Positions 4,343 through 28,575 of a DNA stretch of 32,683 nt are shown here, in pieces. The position numbers and the translations under genes are program-made. The DNA is from a virus (taxonomy: Duplodnaviria; Caudoviricetes). Position 1 is the stretch's first letter; each line of letters starts with the position of its first letter. A model generated the notes under the pieces. That model did no database searches. It was not told the DNA's origin and saw only the letters and a program-made list of their open reading frames with translations. The stretch covers positions 1 to 32,683 of the IMG/VR virus record IMGVR_UViG_3300006127_000058, one strand, 5' to 3'.

Positions 4343-4789
4343 TTAGCTAAAGTCATAGCCATAAACATATACATCACCAGTTCCAGTAGCACCTGATGCA
4401 ACTGTCACATTGGCATATAAAGTTTGGTTAGCATAAGACAAACTGGTTGAGCTTGAATCTACATAGGCAGTTCCTAGTGTGGAAGTTGACAAAGATGCAA
4501 GTTGAGCAGTTGTTAGAGCACCAAATAAACTTGATGGTGAACCAGAGTTTACTGTTGCAATGCCTAGTGCTGTGCTAGTTGACAAACTTACCACTGATCC
4601 ATTGTTGTTTACATTGGTAACAATCAACTCTTTTGGCAAATATGCTGTGGAGTTGTTAACAGGGATTGGGGTAAATGCAACTGCATTCAAGTTAACACCC
4701 TTTGCCACACCAATCAAGCGCAAAGCCTGATTAGTGGTGACATTACTTGGGTGTGCTGAGACTGTGGTTGCTGGTCCGGGATTACTCAT
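4343..4789 (-). CDS. Probable capsid decoration/minor head protein
   Basis: Directly downstream of coat and before the terminator; beta-rich, ends DVYVYGYDFS. Function inferred from position. Confidence 0.55.
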   Translation of the reverse strand: MSNPGPATTVSAHPSNVTTNQALRLIGVAKGVNLNAVAFTPIPVNNSTAYLPKELIVTNVNNNGSVVSLSTSTALGIATVNSGSPSSLFGALTTAQLASLSTSTLGTAYVDSSSTSLSYANQTLYANVTVASGATGTGDVYVYGYDFS

Positions 4790-4820
4790 TTTTTATTTCC
4801 TTTAATGTAAATGTTAATGA

Positions 4821-6074
4821 TTAAGCCGCGATTCTGCAAGCAAGCTCTTGGTACAGCGGTGCCCAACCATACAGAACATCAAGCCTTGTTGGGATTGAAT
4901 CGTTGTTGATGGTGTATTGGCGCACAACACGCATGGACAAACCAACTTCCTTGTCAGAGGCTCTGCCTGCAAAGTGCACACCCTCGGGCAACTCAAGATC
5001 AGCTACCGCTAACGTAAATGCATTGCGATGGAAGAGCATGTTTTGTGGTGACAATGTGCCAGTGTTATTGAATGGTGTAACAACTGCTGTTGAAGATGTT
5101 GTACCAATAATAATAGAGTTCTGGAACTGACCACCAGTGATGACTGCAGGGCTAACTGTAATGTTTGTAGCTGAAGTTCCAACTGTTGTAGTGGACTGAA
5201 TTACAAAATTACGCAATTTGCCAGAGCCATAAGCCTGTCTGTTTTGTGGGTTAGTTGCATACACACCAGCAATCTGGATCACATCACCAGCATTCAATGT
5301 AGATGCTGTAGATGCTTTGATCTGGATTGTTGAATACTGTGACCAACCACTGTTCAAGTAACCAATTTGGCCTGTAGCAGTTGTTGTGTCAGCAGAGAGT
5401 GTGTTTCCACTGTAAGAGCCAAAGGTTTGACTGACCACGTTTTGATCCAATTTCCAATTGGTCCCAGCGCTGTCCCGGCCCATAAGGCCTTTGCGGTATT
5501 GCTCCGCTATCGCCTCTTGTGGCATGAACAAACCTTTTAGTGAATCAACAATAGTTGCTGATGTAAAGGGTTCAACAATACATGCTCTGCGACCATCTCT
5601 TGGTGCACCTTCTGCATCAAGATATGCGCCAGCAGTTAGATAGGTGATGAGGCCTGTGGGGGGTGTCCCGGCCGTCCCGACGATATTTGCTGTTTGCAAA
5701 GCCGCCATCTGTAATCCATCACGGTCTATCTTATTTGCAATAGCAGCTACTGCGGGTTTCAATACGCGGTCACTGAACATATCGAGTGATAGGGCCAGGT
5801 CTTGCGTAGTAAATTGCGTATCCACGTGAAATTGCGTTGATAGAGTGACCGGCACCGAAGTTTCATTGAAGTCCTCTACGTTGAGTGCGGGCCCGGTTGT
5901 ACCAATGAAGCGACCAGGTCTGCGGACATTGACTGTATTGCCGATCTTTCCGCCAACTACGGCAAACTGATCGTCATAGTTGCGATCAACTTCACTTGAA
6001 AATGTGAGTTCGTTTTCTAAGACCATTAATGCTTCATTAGTGATCTTGGATATCGTTAGCAAATTATTTGCCAT
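4821..6074 (-). CDS. Major capsid protein, P22 gp5-like (HK97 fold)
   Basis: MANNLLT...ITNEALMVLENEL, KIGNTVNVRRP and C-terminal RLDVLYGW match the P22 coat family; follows scaffold. Confidence 0.92.
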   Translation of the reverse strand: MANNLLTISKITNEALMVLENELTFSSEVDRNYDDQFAVVGGKIGNTVNVRRPGRFIGTTGPALNVEDFNETSVPVTLSTQFHVDTQFTTQDLALSLDMFSDRVLKPAVAAIANKIDRDGLQMAALQTANIVGTAGTPPTGLITYLTAGAYLDAEGAPRDGRRACIVEPFTSATIVDSLKGLFMPQEAIAEQYRKGLMGRDSAGTNWKLDQNVVSQTFGSYSGNTLSADTTTATGQIGYLNSGWSQYSTIQIKASTASTLNAGDVIQIAGVYATNPQNRQAYGSGKLRNFVIQSTTTVGTSATNITVSPAVITGGQFQNSIIIGTTSSTAVVTPFNNTGTLSPQNMLFHRNAFTLAVADLELPEGVHFAGRASDKEVGLSMRVVRQYTINNDSIPTRLDVLYGWAPLYQELACRIAA

Positions 6075-13783: not shown

Positions 13784-14050
13784 TTATGTTTGTTGTTGTA
13801 ATGTAGTAAAAAGAGGAATGTCAAAATGTAATTTATTTTTTTCATCCATGCTGTCATATTGAGTTTTGCTCACTAATTGATTATTTTTAGTGCTACTCAT
13901 ATATGCCACAGGCTCACCCTGCTCCCGAATAGGGGCTTTCTCATCCCAATAATCAGGATAAACACGAACAATATGCCCAGGCTTATGGGGGTCTAGTATT
14001 TCTATGAACTTATCGCCCCAATACGCTTTTGTTTCTTTTCCTATATTCAT
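13784..14050 (-). CDS. Mosaic accessory protein
   Basis: EQGEPVAYM...PLFT module; lies in a CpG-rich island. Confidence 0.6.
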   Translation of the reverse strand: MNIGKETKAYWGDKFIEILDPHKPGHIVRVYPDYWDEKAPIREQGEPVAYMSSTKNNQLVSKTQYDSMDEKNKLHFDIPLFTTLQQQT

Positions 14051-14664: not shown

Positions 14665-15274
14665 TTAAACTCCTTAATTTATTTACTTTCTCTTCAACTT
14701 CTCTTAAAAACTGTATAACCTCTTGCTCCAACTCAATTAAATAAGACTTATCCAAATTTACCCTTTTACAAAAGAGTTGTAAGTTTTCTGGCATTCTAGG
14801 GTCATAACTCACAAAGTCAGTCCACTCAGTTTGAGTACATCCCATTTGCCATGTCATTTGAATAATGTATTTACTAGGAACTTTTCCAGATAGCAAAGTT
14901 TCCAAGTGAGTTGCGGTGTTTGGGCACTTTATCTCTATGAGGCCTGTATCTACCAAACCATCTGGTGATGCTCCAGACATTTCAATTGTGGGATGAGGAA
15001 CAAAACCTACTTGGTTAACCATGCAGTTGTATTTGACCTCATATGCCGCCCGCGCTAACGGCTCAGTCTCAGTCCCCCACTGCATTGCAGAATTACTGTA
15101 GGACTCAATAGGCTTGCTTGTAAGCCTTTCACAGACCAGTTGAGCCATATAGTTATCTCTTGATGTGGAATAGCCTGATTTAGTCTTGGCTATGATGTCA
15201 GCAACTCTAGAGGCTGTTACCTTTCCAAGTCTAGCTTGGAACCATTCCTCTGTGCCTTGTTCAATTTCAGTCAT
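14657..15274 (-). CDS. YqaJ/lambda-exonuclease-family recombination nuclease
   Basis: QGTEEWFQARLGKVTAS, MQWGTETEP, GASPDGLV, IEIKCP and YxxQMxWQM motifs. Confidence 0.92.
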   Translation of the reverse strand: MTEIEQGTEEWFQARLGKVTASRVADIIAKTKSGYSTSRDNYMAQLVCERLTSKPIESYSNSAMQWGTETEPLARAAYEVKYNCMVNQVGFVPHPTIEMSGASPDGLVDTGLIEIKCPNTATHLETLLSGKVPSKYIIQMTWQMGCTQTEWTDFVSYDPRMPENLQLFCKRVNLDKSYLIELEQEVIQFLREVEEKVNKLRSLNV

Positions 15275-16802: not shown

Positions 16803-16829
16803 TTTTCTGGAGGTTTGCGAGGGCATTTA

Positions 16830-17597
16830 ATGCACTATTATCAACATCATATTGGTGACTTTTTAAAGGTCACATCTAGGCTTTCTGATTCCCAGACTAT
16901 GGCCTATCTCAGGTTAATCTGGATTTATTATGATTCTGAAAAACCTTTAATCAATAATATTAAAGTATTAGCATTTCAAGTAGGAGCATCTGAAAATGAT
17001 GTTGAACTTATTTTGCATAGTTTCTTTAAATTAAATCAAGACTCTTGGCATCAAACAAGATGTGATTTAGAAATTGAACAATATAGAGAACTTTTGTCTA
17101 AAAAATCAAAAGGAGGAAAGATCTCTGCTGAACAAAGAAAGGCTAAAAAATCAACAGGTGTTGAACAGGTGTTGAACAGGTGTTCAACAGATGTGCAACT
17201 AACCAATAACCATGAACCATTAACCAATAACCATAAACCAATTATTAATACTATACAGTCAGGAGCAAAGCTCCTAACTTGCCCTCATCAAGAGATTTTG
17301 AAACTTTATCAAAAGCATTTACCTCACCTTACTCAGCCTAGAGTTTGGGAGGGAGCAAGGCAAACCAATCTGAAAAACAGATGGACTCAAGCATCCCAAA
17401 AGTCTGACTTTTCAGATGGATACACCACTTTGGAGGAGGGTTTAGTCTGGTGGGATGAGTTTTTCCAATACATAGCCAAGGACACAAAACTATCTTCAGG
17501 CTTTGAGAGCAATAACAGAACTTGGAGGCCAGACCTTGTTTGGATGGTCAATGCTAGTAATTTTCAAAAAATAATTGATGGGAAGTATGACAAATGA
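16830..17597 (+). CDS. Replication initiator (DUF1376/YdaU-like, lambda O analogue)
   Basis: MHYYQHHIGDF...AYLRLIWIYYDSEKPL N-terminus, central iterons, C-terminal F.KIIDGKY. Start moved to ATG 16830. Confidence 0.85.
   Translation: MHYYQHHIGDFLKVTSRLSDSQTMAYLRLIWIYYDSEKPLINNIKVLAFQVGASENDVELILHSFFKLNQDSWHQTRCDLEIEQYRELLSKKSKGGKISAEQRKAKKSTGVEQVLNRCSTDVQLTNNHEPLTNNHKPIINTIQSGAKLLTCPHQEILKLYQKHLPHLTQPRVWEGARQTNLKNRWTQASQKSDFSDGYTTLEEGLVWWDEFFQYIAKDTKLSSGFESNNRTWRPDLVWMVNASNFQKIIDGKYDK
17151..17242 (+). repeat. Replication origin iterons within the initiator gene
   Basis: About four copies of 11-bp TT(G/C)AACAG(G/A)TG, then AACCA heptad repeats (two ~21-bp units). Confidence 0.75.
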
Positions 17598-17896
17598 GCT
17601 TTAAAAAATCAGAATCAAAACAAGAACCTCAAGATGATGGTGCAAGATTGCTTTGCAGTGAGTTTGGTTGTACCAACCCTTGGACTGTTCAAATTGAAAA
17701 ACCCAAATGTAGTTTGCACCAATGGAAAAAGAAAGAACCTCCTCCAGAACAAGTTTGGGTGAAACTTGAAGAGCCTATGGGTGATGGTAGAGATTGGGCT
17801 AGGATTATTCTTGCCAAACAAGAAATGGGGTATAAAGTCAGGAAAATTAGCCTTGAATTTGCTAAAGAGGCATTAAGAATTAAGGAAGTAGTATGA
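17594..17896 (+). CDS. Hypothetical protein (Cys/His motif)
   Basis: CSEFGC...KCSLH and RDWARIIL; coupled to the initiator. Confidence 0.6.
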   Translation: MSFKKSESKQEPQDDGARLLCSEFGCTNPWTVQIEKPKCSLHQWKKKEPPPEQVWVKLEEPMGDGRDWARIILAKQEMGYKVRKISLEFAKEALRIKEVV

Positions 17897-18963
17897 AAAC
17901 ATTAATTTCTACTGTTGAACAAGATGAAATCACCAAAGAATGCTCAAAATCATTTGACTTTCAATTTGATGGATCAACCAAATTTCAAGTGCCTTTTTTT
18001 GAAAAGCCTGAAAATTTCCAAATAGGCTTGATTGTAGGGGCATCAGGTAGTGGCAAATCTTCCATACTATCTACCATAGGTGAGGCTGAAAAAGTGTCTT
18101 GGGAGCCTAATAAAGCCATTTGTAGCCATTTTGAAAGTGCTTTGGATGCTCAGAACAAACTCAGTGCTGTTGGACTCAATTCTGTACCATCTTGGTTAAA
18201 GCCTTATCATGTTTTGTCTATGGGAGAAAAGTTCAGAGCTGACTTGTCTAGATCTTTAAAAGACAATGCCATCATTGATGAATTTACATCTGTTGTGGAT
18301 AGAAATGTGGCTAAATCTTGTTCTTATGCTATAGCTAGGCATATCAGAAAAGAGGGCTTGAAAAATATGGTGTTTGCCTCTTGTCACTATGACATCATTG
18401 ATTGGTTACAGCCTGATTGGATTTTTGACACAACTACAAACCGGCTCACAGTCGGAAGGGGGTCAGTTCGGCCAGTTCTGGAATTGGAGATACTTCCTTG
18501 CACAACCGAAGCATGGTCAGTCTTTCGCAACCATCACTATCTCACAGGAAACCTCAATAAAAGTGCACGATGTTGGATCGCAACATGGGAGGGAACGCTT
18601 GTTGGATTTGCCGCAGCTATCACTCTTCCCTCTGGAACCTTAAAAAAAGCATGGAAAGGTCATAGAACTGTGATACTTCCTGATTTCCAAGGTCTAGGGT
18701 TTGGAGTAAGAATCAGTGATGCAATTGGTCAAATATTTGTAAATGAGGGTTGTAGATATTTTTCTAAATCTAGTCATGTAAGACTTGGTGAATATAGGAA
18801 TAATTCACCTTTGTGGAGACCAACAGCTCACAATATGCAAGATAGATCTAGACAATATAAAAGATCTTTGGAAAATAAAACAGATTTCTTTTGGTCAAAA
18901 GAAATGACTGAAAGACATGCAGATAGGATTTGTTATTGTCATGAATACATAGGTGCAAAATGA
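17893..18963 (+). CDS. ABC-type ATPase fused to a GNAT (Mom-like) acetyltransferase
   Basis: Walker A GASGSGKS, signature LSMGE, Walker B IIDEF with VVDR, H-loop SCH; then HHYL and the acetyl-CoA motif RTVILPDFQGLGFG. Confidence 0.85.
   Translation: MKTLISTVEQDEITKECSKSFDFQFDGSTKFQVPFFEKPENFQIGLIVGASGSGKSSILSTIGEAEKVSWEPNKAICSHFESALDAQNKLSAVGLNSVPSWLKPYHVLSMGEKFRADLSRSLKDNAIIDEFTSVVDRNVAKSCSYAIARHIRKEGLKNMVFASCHYDIIDWLQPDWIFDTTTNRLTVGRGSVRPVLELEILPCTTEAWSVFRNHHYLTGNLNKSARCWIATWEGTLVGFAAAITLPSGTLKKAWKGHRTVILPDFQGLGFGVRISDAIGQIFVNEGCRYFSKSSHVRLGEYRNNSPLWRPTAHNMQDRSRQYKRSLENKTDFFWSKEMTERHADRICYCHEYIGAK
18374..18643 (+). CDS. Candidate overprinted +1-frame ORF ending ...PQLSLFPLEP
   Basis: Open +1 frame across the ATPase/GNAT junction; QLSLF at 18614-18628; coincides with a CpG island. 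Confidence 0.4.
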   Translation: MPLVTMTSLIGYSLIGFLTQLQTGSQSEGGQFGQFWNWRYFLAQPKHGQSFATITISQETSIKVHDVGSQHGRERLLDLPQLSLFPLEP

Positions 18964-19514
18964 ATGCAATTCTTGAATTAAATGATTTAGGAATAGTCAG
19001 AAATGCAACATTAAATGACATTTCCTATATTATTTCATTATCAAAAAAGGAAAGTAATAGTCTTGGATTTATACCAAAAATGGCTTATGAATCAGCTATT
19101 ACAGGAATAAAATCAGGTGATAGATGGAGTAATGTTTGTAATGACAAATTATTTATTATTGAATGTAATAATGATTTGGTAGGTTTTTGTTTAGCAAGTT
19201 TTGGAATTCCTCATGCTATTAGTAAAAAAGGAAAAATAGCTCAAATTTGTTTACAAACTGATGCTAGAAAATTTTTAAGAGGTAGAAAACTTTTAGACCA
19301 TGTTGTTGATTATGGCAAAACTCAAGGAACTTTTGCATTCAGTGCTGGGTGTGCTGATGATTTGGAATCCAACTTATTTTGGCAATCTATGGGTTGGATT
19401 AAGATTGCACAAAGAAATGGTATATCTCACAAAAATACTTGGAAACAAACAAGTCAAAGGTTGATAAACATTTATAGATATGATCCATCTGATTTTTTAT
19501 TAGGATTAATATGA
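18960..19514 (+). CDS. GNAT-family acetyltransferase
   Basis: VRNATLND, LVGFCL, motif A QICLQTDARKFLRG, motif B SNLFWQSMGW. Confidence 0.85.
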   Translation: MNAILELNDLGIVRNATLNDISYIISLSKKESNSLGFIPKMAYESAITGIKSGDRWSNVCNDKLFIIECNNDLVGFCLASFGIPHAISKKGKIAQICLQTDARKFLRGRKLLDHVVDYGKTQGTFAFSAGCADDLESNLFWQSMGWIKIAQRNGISHKNTWKQTSQRLINIYRYDPSDFLLGLI

Positions 19515-19660
19515 CTTTTAAAACAATTTGGCAACCAGTTAAACCTTGGGATGTTCCTGTCAAACAACTTGATAGGGCTAAATATCCTAAAAAAAAAGAT
19601 GAATATAAAAGAGAAAGGACAAACCAAAATGCCCTCAGAAAATGGATCTTTAATCTTTGA
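19511..19660 (+). CDS. 49-aa basic protein (not in ORF track)
   Basis: ATGA overlap with the GNAT stop, AGGA SD; MTFKTIWQPVKPWDVPVKQLDRAKYPKKK... Confidence 0.5.
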   Translation: MTFKTIWQPVKPWDVPVKQLDRAKYPKKKDEYKRERTNQNALRKWIFNL

Positions 19661-19829
19661 TTGGGATGCTGAATACCAAAGCATAGTTAAATTCTATGCT
19701 GAGTTGGCATTAGCTCCAGGCTTTAGGGACTACACCAGAGATATGGTTAAGCAAAAAATGATGGATCCATTATTGAAAAATTTAGGTAAAGATGTTGCTG
19801 AAAAAATTAAGGAATTAGAAAATGACTAA
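19629..19829 (+). CDS. Hypothetical protein
   Basis: Start moved to ATG 19629 (AAGGA SD); ends overlapping the next gene. Confidence 0.55.
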   Translation: MPSENGSLIFDWDAEYQSIVKFYAELALAPGFRDYTRDMVKQKMMDPLLKNLGKDVAEKIKELEND

Positions 19830-20067
19830 GGAAGAAATAATAAACATTGCTTGGAATATATTTCCCATAAGTGTTAGAGATGATGATGATACATTTATTG
19901 TGTTATTACATCATTTTGCAAATTTAATAGCAAAACGTGAACGTGAAGCGTGTGCAGAAATTGCTGAAAAGCAACGCTATGCAATGCATATAAGTTTGAC
20001 TTCTCATCCCACTCAAAACGGAACAGCAGTCGGAATTGCAAATGAAATCCGTGCAAGGGGACAATAA
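19822..20067 (+). CDS. Mosaic accessory protein (EREACA...IRARGQ family)
   Basis: Recognisable motif; 3' half is CpG-rich. Confidence 0.65.
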   Translation: MTKEEIINIAWNIFPISVRDDDDTFIVLLHHFANLIAKREREACAEIAEKQRYAMHISLTSHPTQNGTAVGIANEIRARGQ

Positions 20068-27762: not shown

Positions 27763-28575
27763 TTATGCTTGTGCACCTGGCACACCACCAGATTGAGTAT
27801 TAGGGCCAATTGTTGCATTTGGATCATAGCCTTGTGGAGCTTGTACATTAGGCTTTTGATTTAGCAATGCCCATAAAGTAGCACCACTTCCCAAAGTATT
27901 TGTAAGTCCACCATAAGCATTGGCAGATGCAATTTGGCCTTGACCCAAAGCACTAGCTCCACCAACTCCAAGACTGCTAATGTTGTTTGTGGCATTTTGG
28001 CCCGCAGTGTTCACAGCACTTTGGGCTGTTTGACCAATGCCTGCCTGTCCAGCCAATATCCCATAAATATTATTTCTTTGATTCTGGTAATTAGTAAAAG
28101 CATTTTGGTATTGAGTCCCAGCCAACCCTTGTGTGTAATTTTGTAACCCAGTAAGTGCATTTCCACCTATCAAACCTCCACCCACATTATTGGCATTTTG
28201 TGTAGCCCTTTGGCCTTGGTCAAGCACAAAACCATAGTTAGGAGCCATTTGAGCATTTAAATCACCAGATCCAAATTGATGAGTTAAATAACCAGACCCT
28301 GTGGAGGTTCCTGTTGGGTTTCCATTAGCATCATAAGTCTGATAAGCACCAGATCCAAGTGAACCAAGTTGATTAATAGAGTTATAACCAAGTTGTCTTT
28401 GAGGAGCTTGTTGTTGTTGAATGGTGTTGAATTCAGCCTTTTGCTCTGCAATGGCTTGCAGTGCGGCTTGGTATTGCAACTGCGCGGCTTGTTGTGCGGC
28501 ATTAGCCTGTTTGTTAGCACCCCATACACTTAAACCACCAGATGCAAGTAATGCGGTTCCTACTCCAATTGGCAT
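27763..28575 (-). CDS. DNA ejection/pilot protein (P22 gp7-like)
   Basis: Hydrophobic G/A N-terminus; PNYGF...QG...GGLIGGNAL..L..Y.QGLA...YQNAF motif. Confidence 0.75.
   Translation of the reverse strand: MPIGVGTALLASGGLSVWGANKQANAAQQAAQLQYQAALQAIAEQKAEFNTIQQQQAPQRQLGYNSINQLGSLGSGAYQTYDANGNPTGTSTGSGYLTHQFGSGDLNAQMAPNYGFVLDQGQRATQNANNVGGGLIGGNALTGLQNYTQGLAGTQYQNAFTNYQNQRNNIYGILAGQAGIGQTAQSAVNTAGQNATNNISSLGVGGASALGQGQIASANAYGGLTNTLGSGATLWALLNQKPNVQAPQGYDPNATIGPNTQSGGVPGAQA

Follow-up and report, generated by a model that had tools for sequence, protein, structure and literature searches.

A candidate prfB-like +1 frameshift cassette without a stop codon in a family of phage ATPase-acetyltransferase genes, with a predicted clamp-binding tail

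Can a single phage gene make both an ATPase joined to an acetyltransferase and a shorter ATPase whose tail is directed to the replication clamp? The question arises from a phage contig of 32.7 kb, analysed here as a whole and called the window, whose sequence is present in freshwater metagenomes, with no RNA run among the sequencing runs listed for it. One of its genes encodes an ABC-type ATPase fused to a GNAT acetyltransferase, and a hidden +1 frame within this gene ends in QLSLF, an exact copy of the β-clamp-binding consensus QL[SD]LF as given in the excerpted text of PMC12867686. The preliminary description had this frame open from 18374 to 18643 and ending RLLDLPQLSLFPLEP*, which is correct, and no second QL[SD]LF occurs in any of the window's six frames. 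Although the whole stretch is open, only 18470-18643 is conserved; upstream of the G-run many homologues carry +1 stops, so that the conserved frame begins at the ATPase/GNAT joint and not at 18374. From the comparisons described below we consider it likely that a signal resembling that of prfB yields a +1-shifted ATPase of 249 residues, whose QLSLF-ended tail is predicted to bind the host β clamp. The features concerned are collected in Table 1.

Table 1. Features of the ATPase-GNAT locus, in coordinates of the window.
Feature	Coordinates	Strand	Description or basis
ABC-type ATPase fused to GNAT acetyltransferase, frame 0 product	17893..18963	+	356 aa, 40.4 kDa
ATPase part common to both predicted products	17893..18468	+	residues 1-192; sequence, invariant columns, ABC matches
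ATPase motifs: Walker A 49-56, LSMGE signature, IIDE Walker B, H165	within 17893..18468	+	sequence
CG patch, 9 CG	18442..18613	.	genome CG-depleted, observed/expected 0.11
Shine-Dalgarno-like element AGG-GGG, holds G5 run	18457..18462	+	NGG-RGG kept in nucleotides, residues vary
Spacer TCA, P-site GTT (18466-18468), A-site CGG (18469-18471)	18463..18471	+	codon fixity, offset
Overprinted +1 tail, 57 aa	18470..18643	+	stop avoidance, codon-position signature, default-frame relatives
HHY-L codons, +1 reads ITI	18532..18544	+	Leu CTC removes stop that ends short tails
QLSLF, exact β-clamp-binding consensus	18614..18628	+	four residues before the tail's stop
Second, stand-alone GNAT gene	18960..19514	+	phrog_1249; optional neighbour, outside the two-product system

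The frame 0 product matches phrog_11143 (E 9e-111) and PF00583 (E 7e-6); for membership of phrog_11143, the full-length match, the ABC motifs and the GNAT domain are all present in the window's protein. Its ATPase motifs are those that we take to be Walker A, signature and Walker B. The predicted structure of the fusion (pLDDT 94) has ABC nucleotide-binding domains as its nearest folds, and in the model residues 188-197 link the final strand of the ATPase to the opening strand of GNAT, with the putative shift site inside this linker. A DUF1376 replication-initiator-like gene lies two genes before the ATPase-GNAT gene, and ninB and an HNH gene lie a few genes after it. Matches of 88 ORFs neighbouring the homologues include initiators, primases, helicases, PolA, RusA, NinG, Mom and a methylase; functions in replication or DNA modification are frequent among the genes near the homologues. 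The second GNAT gene is an optional insertion, found in one (L001) of 16 related loci tested, some of which end early downstream, and one contig joins across it, skipping 18963-19518.

In order to compare the gene across the family, loci L001-L229 were assembled with the window into 230 sequences, 225 of which could be anchored. GNAT was in frame, with enough flank, in 217 of these, and 149 representatives were left below 90% nucleotide identity; the 8 loci dropped from the 225 include four Firmicute loci with GNAT in another frame, which were handled apart. A set of 26 closer homologues was obtained by leaving out five distant ones after early closure of their frame had been seen. All homologues are related to each other and the counts below ignore kinship, so that they overstate the number of independent events. 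By our estimate the family spans some 1,100 genome and 2,400 viral stretches; its members include a protein of Tenacibaculum phage pT24, with 40% identity over 97% of the query. A further 37 non-redundant viral loci were found with tail-containing queries, a bias toward open tails; a pattern recognises the cassette described below in 27 of them, whose tails have 25 residues or more, and inspection by eye adds another four.

Beyond the joint, the +1 frame is kept free of stops. Its first 24 codons contain no stop in any of 144 cassette carriers, although 61 carriers were expected to have one; over the 24 control codons upstream of the cassette, 94 of the 144 do. Over residues 193-238 the 26 closer homologues have a single +1 stop against 67.4 expected from synonymous resampling, and in these homologues the other alternative frames, including the three reverse ones, contain no comparable stop-free zone. 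The tails fall into a short group (90 representatives, 24-33 residues) and a long one (53 representatives, 37-69 residues), one locus with an insertion being kept out of both. Short tails end ITI (65) or III (22) in 87 of 90 cases, against about 20 expected. The codons for HHYL in frame 0 separate the groups: long tails have CTC as the Leu codon in 49 of 53 cases, whereas all 90 short tails have YTR with a purine after it, which is how that group is defined. Short-tail relatives such as L084-L160, L224 and L227 keep CAT-CAY-TAT even in GC-rich genomes, so that their +1 tail ends I-T or I-I.

Synonymous change shows the same boundaries. Short-tail genes, of which 45 of 90 were sampled, have peaks of synonymous conservation only at the cassette and at HHYL, and their third-position suppression is gone after residue 217. 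Long-tail genes show synonymous conservation 1.6-2.2-fold high as far as residue 237, falling to about 1.1 after 247. Among 22 independent long-tail pairs, third positions diverge by 0.23-0.24 within the tail and by 0.47-0.50 outside it, and four-fold sites by 0.13-0.20 and 0.54-0.58, with no suppression at first positions. Suppression that touches third positions and spares first ones points to an overlapping +1 protein and not to an RNA or DNA element. Most long tails belong to one clade (support 0.98), which also contains three short-tail members. From stop avoidance and codon positions together we conclude that the +1 frame is real and under selection, and it is highly probable that the tail is a functional protein. 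A search with the 89-aa +1 ORF gave no match among longer proteins, which is weak evidence, and NCBIfam has no family for the tail. A search with a tail profile returned nine proteins, of which eight are the family's own tail or ATPase plus tail, with no unrelated homologue; the ninth, P0126, looks spurious.

The preliminary description had also drawn attention to the base composition of this region, calling it a CpG island, which is a misnomer for a phage. The observations themselves are confirmed: the nine CG dinucleotides of the patch are the only ones within 16819-19935; the gene's four CGN Arg codons (184, 193, 212 and 226) all lie in the patch, its other 17 Arg codons being AGR; and GCAGC/GCTGC is scarce in the genome (5 observed, 41 expected), with one site at 18613. 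About 0.46 CG would be expected in the 171 nt at the rate found outside the coat-gene block, but the genome contains seven further clusters by the same rule (eight in all), so that the patch by itself does not stand out in this genome. If frame 0 alone mattered, a silent change would suffice to remove eight of the nine CGs; when both frames have to be kept, eight of the nine withstand every single silent change, and the exception, at 18442, is lost in sister strain L002. With the exception of the retained CG at 18453, which lies upstream of the shift site and which dual coding does not explain, this substitution analysis indicates that dual coding explains the patch, as had been proposed. Among four sister strains the tail differs at 6-7 of 187 bases and the ATPase at 51-54 of 564.

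A patch of this kind could instead be a tract recently recombined from a CG-normal phage, its open frame and motif being due to chance. The genome does have other CG-rich blocks, e.g. the coat gene, and residues 181-250 show raised identity to relatives richer in CG. However, no near-identical donor is seen, identity over 193-250 being 0.68-0.85 in seven CG-richer relatives; CG is denser in the tail than elsewhere in the gene for 27 of 29 CG-poor representatives; and frame and cassette are kept down to about 35% protein identity. Stop avoidance, the third-position pattern and the CG analysis largely refute a recombination tract, which we regard as exceedingly improbable.

Elsewhere in the window, the P22-like coat gene (by family matches; 4719-6054) holds 48 clustered CGs of the genome's 135, which suggests that it was recently acquired from a CG-normal phage. 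Smaller clusters at 13926-14024, 15047-15059, 19936-20050 and 28464-28554 may, by analogy, be overlapping constraints or recent tracts. Over the whole window TG (1.38) and CA (1.32) are raised, and GCWGC, GGWCC and many 6-base palindromes are strongly avoided; the loss of CG and the avoidance of palindromes point to host CpG methylation and several restriction systems.

At the point where the conserved +1 frame begins, the window reads AGG GGG TCA GTT CGG (18457-18471), and nearly all homologues share this layout, in which three bases separate NGG-RGG from a CTT, GTT, GAA or CAA codon and a sense codon comes next. A strict pattern for this cassette is found in 125 of 149 representatives and 17 times in 316,264 codons of other ORFs of the same loci; a loose one is found in 144 of 149, including a few mis-calls, and NGG-RGG in 136 of 149. 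The purine tract is kept while the residues that it encodes vary (R, W or G, then R or G), and synonymous conservation at residue 189 is about 4-fold above expectation. The codon in the putative P site is fixed for each residue, with CTT for Leu in 92 of 92 cases (background 15%), GTT for Val in 15 of 15 and GAA for Glu in 14 of 14, and CTT stands exactly 3 nt past the hexamer in 92 of its 95 occurrences. Judged by the base that follows (n = 136), the P-site tRNA could mostly re-pair one base on, as in CTT-C (79), GAA-A (14), GTT-C (13) and CAA-A (4); CTT-A (11) and GCT-A (3) fit re-pairing less well, and CTT-T occurs only twice. The A-site codon is a sense codon in all 144 carriers, CGG (56), AGG (34) and CAA (25) being the most common. 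A rough count over these loci gave no sign that these codons are rare, CGG being used at 1.02 and AGG at 0.75 of even use, and a hungry rare codon in the A site, which we had considered, is unsupported across the family by that count.

The G5 run to which the preliminary description had pointed is indeed present at 18458-18462, but most likely acts as a Shine-Dalgarno stimulator and not as a slip site, since the residues vary, GG-RGG is kept and CTT lies at exactly 3 nt. The second frame could alternatively be reached by transcriptional slippage at G5 or by re-initiation from an internal Shine-Dalgarno sequence. The existence of the G5 run in the window agrees with this, and at the T- or A-runs found at the joint in L073, L081, L119 and L364 slippage is plausible. 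But in 80 of 144 carriers the second codon is AGG and not GGG, so that a G-run is lacking, slippage does not account for the CTT fixed at offset 3, no conserved start codon follows the element, and four DNA runs list no indel, these being assembled contigs, which drop rare variants. The AGG second codons, the fixed CTT and the missing start codon led us to reject G5 slippage and an internal start as main routes, and we hold this family of explanations to be very unlikely. An internal start, one of the routes originally put forward, is unlikely also because many homologues have +1 stops just upstream.

It could also be argued that the element is a ribosome pause, or an RNA or DNA signal, between the domains, with the open +1 frame a by-product that is not productively translated. 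Internal Shine-Dalgarno sequences and Arg codons can pause ribosomes, and the shift site sits in the inter-domain linker, as such a signal might. The evidence nevertheless makes a pause signal very improbable: suppression is limited to third positions and spares first ones, constraint follows tail length between the groups, and other phages make the same tail as their default product. Nor is there a sign of an RNA element, since the structure predicted downstream is no better than that of shuffled sequences (z 0.60, -0.08 and 0.70), and Rfam has no family at the shift site, its one sub-threshold match lying elsewhere in the gene. No slippery heptamer is conserved among cassette carriers.

Taken together, the cassette is by these comparisons real, family-wide and surprising, and we think it very probable that the +1 shift occurs. 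By the mechanism proposed for prfB, 16S rRNA would pair with AGGGGG 3 nt upstream and destabilise the P-site tRNA, which would re-pair one base on, from GTT to TTC in the window and from CTT to TTC in the majority of relatives, with the A site meanwhile occupied by a sense codon that is read slowly. A shift after GTT is predicted to give 192 + 57 = 249 residues (28.0 kDa). Since GTT would re-pair with a first-position mismatch, weaker than CUU_U, the shift rate in the window could be low; its A site has no stop codon to pause on.

Relatives that use the tail frame by default, for which the preliminary description had advised looking, were found. Five annotated Firmicute phages (L218-L221 and L229; TR-TP2, Vinitor-27, Javan141, P335 and MismyG) have an ATPase that runs by default into an ITI or III tail, with GNAT in the -1 frame; they are annotated as two genes and are probably unannotated -1 frameshift fusions. 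The same inverted layout is seen in 6 of the 37 new viral loci, with T-runs or heptamer-like sites. Also, among the 120 matches listed for the shifted product as query, at least five are natural one-ORF proteins of ATPase plus tail (214-245 residues), and two of the five end QLDLL; the DNA behind them was examined for one alone (P0080, that is L261), so that single-contig cases could be assembly errors or pseudogenes. Heptamer-like sites stand at the joint in default-tail relatives, G-GGA-AAG in L261 (2495-3136), which we take to be the lambda G-T site, and GGA-AAT-TTT in L358 and L371. That one joint is served by +1 cassettes, by -1 heptamer-like sites and by T- or A-runs argues that the short ATPase is required, and the proposal of two products from a single gene gains support from these comparisons. 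The annotation of L223, from Tenacibaculum phage pT24, splits the gene in two; an in-frame TGA interrupts the GNAT part without any change of frame, and read-through or an altered code is possible there.

What the tail does is a separate matter. Exact QLSLF is found in the window, L076, L161, L165 and L166, and under it the frame 0 residues change from A to S, A to V, T to P and L to F. Exact QL[SD]LF is present in only 5 of 53 long tails. A tolerant clamp pattern, which includes what we take to be the hexameric form of the motif, is found in 29 of the 53 against 1.5 expected and in none of 90 untranslated control regions, the patterns having been drawn up after the tails had been seen. In 17 held-out long tails an earlier, strict pattern occurs once (0.11 expected), a generic one twice (1.7) and the later tolerant one four times (0.32). 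The motif is lacking in nearly half of the first set of long tails (24 of 53) and in most of those held out (13 of 17). To judge from these patterns, the motif is enriched in long tails but patchy, and its LDL register is partly favoured by the frame 0 residues VGF; selection on a clamp-type motif, as suggested earlier, is supported within this sub-clade.

We also inspected the other end of the fusion. Among 145 complete fusion C-ends five carry a clamp-like motif, and none of those five has a tail motif. No motif was found at the C-end in 88 of 92 short-tail or cassette-less relatives in which it is complete, so that clamp binding is not needed family-wide. The fusion in L222 (phage PX29) ends LDFMFGI, which presumably resembles the T4-type clamp motif.

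These observations invite a simpler account, in which the shift is real and the short ATPase is made but the tail is only structural, pairing in the dimer through its I-T/I-I strand, and QLSLF is a non-binding decoration of one lineage. The ITI/III end is kept family-wide, default-frame forms included; the invariant columns of the tail cluster around ITISxxT, away from the clamp motif; and, as just described, many long tails lack the motif. Fold confidence for the tail is low (pLDDT 51-69), and the model of P0025, a natural ATPase-plus-tail protein, is confident over the ATPase but not over a β-hairpin at ITIS..SIKV, nor at the protein's end, which corresponds to the place of QLSLF and is unstructured; the hairpin is in keeping with a structural role. 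Against this, QLSLF outlasts four different frame 0 substitutions across five genes, constraint reaches about residue 241-247, where the motif lies, and motifs of the fusion end and of the tail did not co-occur. We therefore regard a purely structural tail as unlikely, and think that QLSLF probably does bind the β clamp.

A fuller scheme can be proposed. ABC domains work as pairs, and by analogy the ATPase-only and ATPase-GNAT chains may form a heterodimer, which we put forward tentatively. Having the two chains would be the ancestral, family-wide purpose of the cassette, most relatives making an ATPase with a tail of about 25 residues, and the chains would pair as an asymmetric ABC dimer. In the clade of the window the tail would have lengthened to 37-69 residues and gained the clamp motif, so that the short chain could bring the acyltransferase to phage DNA that has just been replicated and carries the clamp, probably for base modification. 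The original prediction for the ATPase-GNAT family is reportedly that of Iyer et al. 2013, as cited in the excerpted text of a 2021 article. Acyl modification of a DNA base is predicted for the ABC ATPase-coupled GNAT family in the excerpted text of PMC7824862, and we slightly favour DNA as the substrate of the enzyme. In its boldest form, which we offer as a speculation with somewhat less behind it than the heterodimer, an enzyme family widespread in phages and prophages would use a stop-free RF2 cassette, a second large natural use of that signal, for an asymmetric ABC dimer; one clade would have evolved a clamp motif de novo by overprinting the first strands of GNAT, docking a DNA-acylating subunit at the fork; and shift rate and subunit ratio might follow the host's supply of Arg and Gln tRNAs.

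The cassette matters beyond this phage. Shine-Dalgarno-stimulated +1 shifting at CUU is known mainly from prfB, and in the stop-free family nature would supply many P-site and A-site variants on which the mechanism could be tested. Since frame 0 is intact, the shift site is invisible to programs that find frameshifts through broken genes. Anyone reconstituting the predicted DNA-modification enzyme from nothing but a codon-optimised fusion would be left without the second chain. The clamp motif, if true, would clearly exemplify how overprinting can give rise to a functional motif.

Searches of the open-access literature found no account of frameshifting in the ATPase-GNAT family, and nothing on it appears in the excerpted texts of PMC3711429, whose supplements list frameshift clusters and may bear on the matter, and of PMC5009743, PMC10885494 and PMC7824862. 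The last deals with the phage pT24 system (phrog_11143), which belongs to the same family and for which DNA-base acylation is predicted; the word "frameshift" does not occur in that excerpted text, and no second product or link to the clamp is described there. Among enzymes of phage Mu, Mom is a GNAT-fold protein that modifies DNA adenine post-replicatively (excerpted text of PMC13219725) and thus resembles the fusion in being a phage GNAT-fold DNA modifier, as is predicted here; unlike Mom, the fusion has no match to the Mom family PF25680 at E 0.1. "Clamp" is absent from the Mom papers PMC13219725 and bioRxiv 10.1101/861617 in a text search. MuC of the same phage binds the host clamp via near-consensus motifs (excerpted text of PMC12867686) and is likewise a phage clamp-binding protein, but it is a transcription activator and its motifs lie in the normal frame.

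The nearest relative of the shift site is that of prfB, with the consensus AGGGGG, 3 nt, CTTT, TGA (excerpted text of PMC12421855), CUU_U being by far the most efficient of the prfB slip sites tested (PMC5009743, in excerpt). All CUU-stop +1 cases of the RECODE set belong to prfB according to the excerpted text of PMC10885494. The two share an internal Shine-Dalgarno-like AGGGGG, 3 nt to a CTT P site, the +1 direction and the want of a detectable 3' structure. They differ in that the A site here holds a sense codon instead of TGA, that the next base is mostly C (CTT-C) instead of T, and that the P-site variants GTT, GAA and CAA are common, the window itself having GTT-C; also, frame 0 gives the long product here, with no autoregulation by termination. 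Since it fails CTTT and the stop, two defining features of prfB, the cassette is a variant and not a member. In its predicted outcome, a long and a short chain sharing their N-terminal part, the system also resembles dnaX tau/gamma, copA/CopA(Z) and magnesium chelatase (PMC5009743, in excerpt), but those depend on -1 shifts or transcriptional slips and this one on a predicted +1 shift; of the dnaX-type heptamer and 3' hairpin, the former is not conserved in cassette carriers, heptamer-like sites being confined to the inverted relatives, and the latter has no counterpart that folds better than shuffled sequence. Finally, whereas dnaX gamma ends one codon after the shift, the short chain here would continue into a selected tail of 25-69 residues, able to carry a motif of its own.
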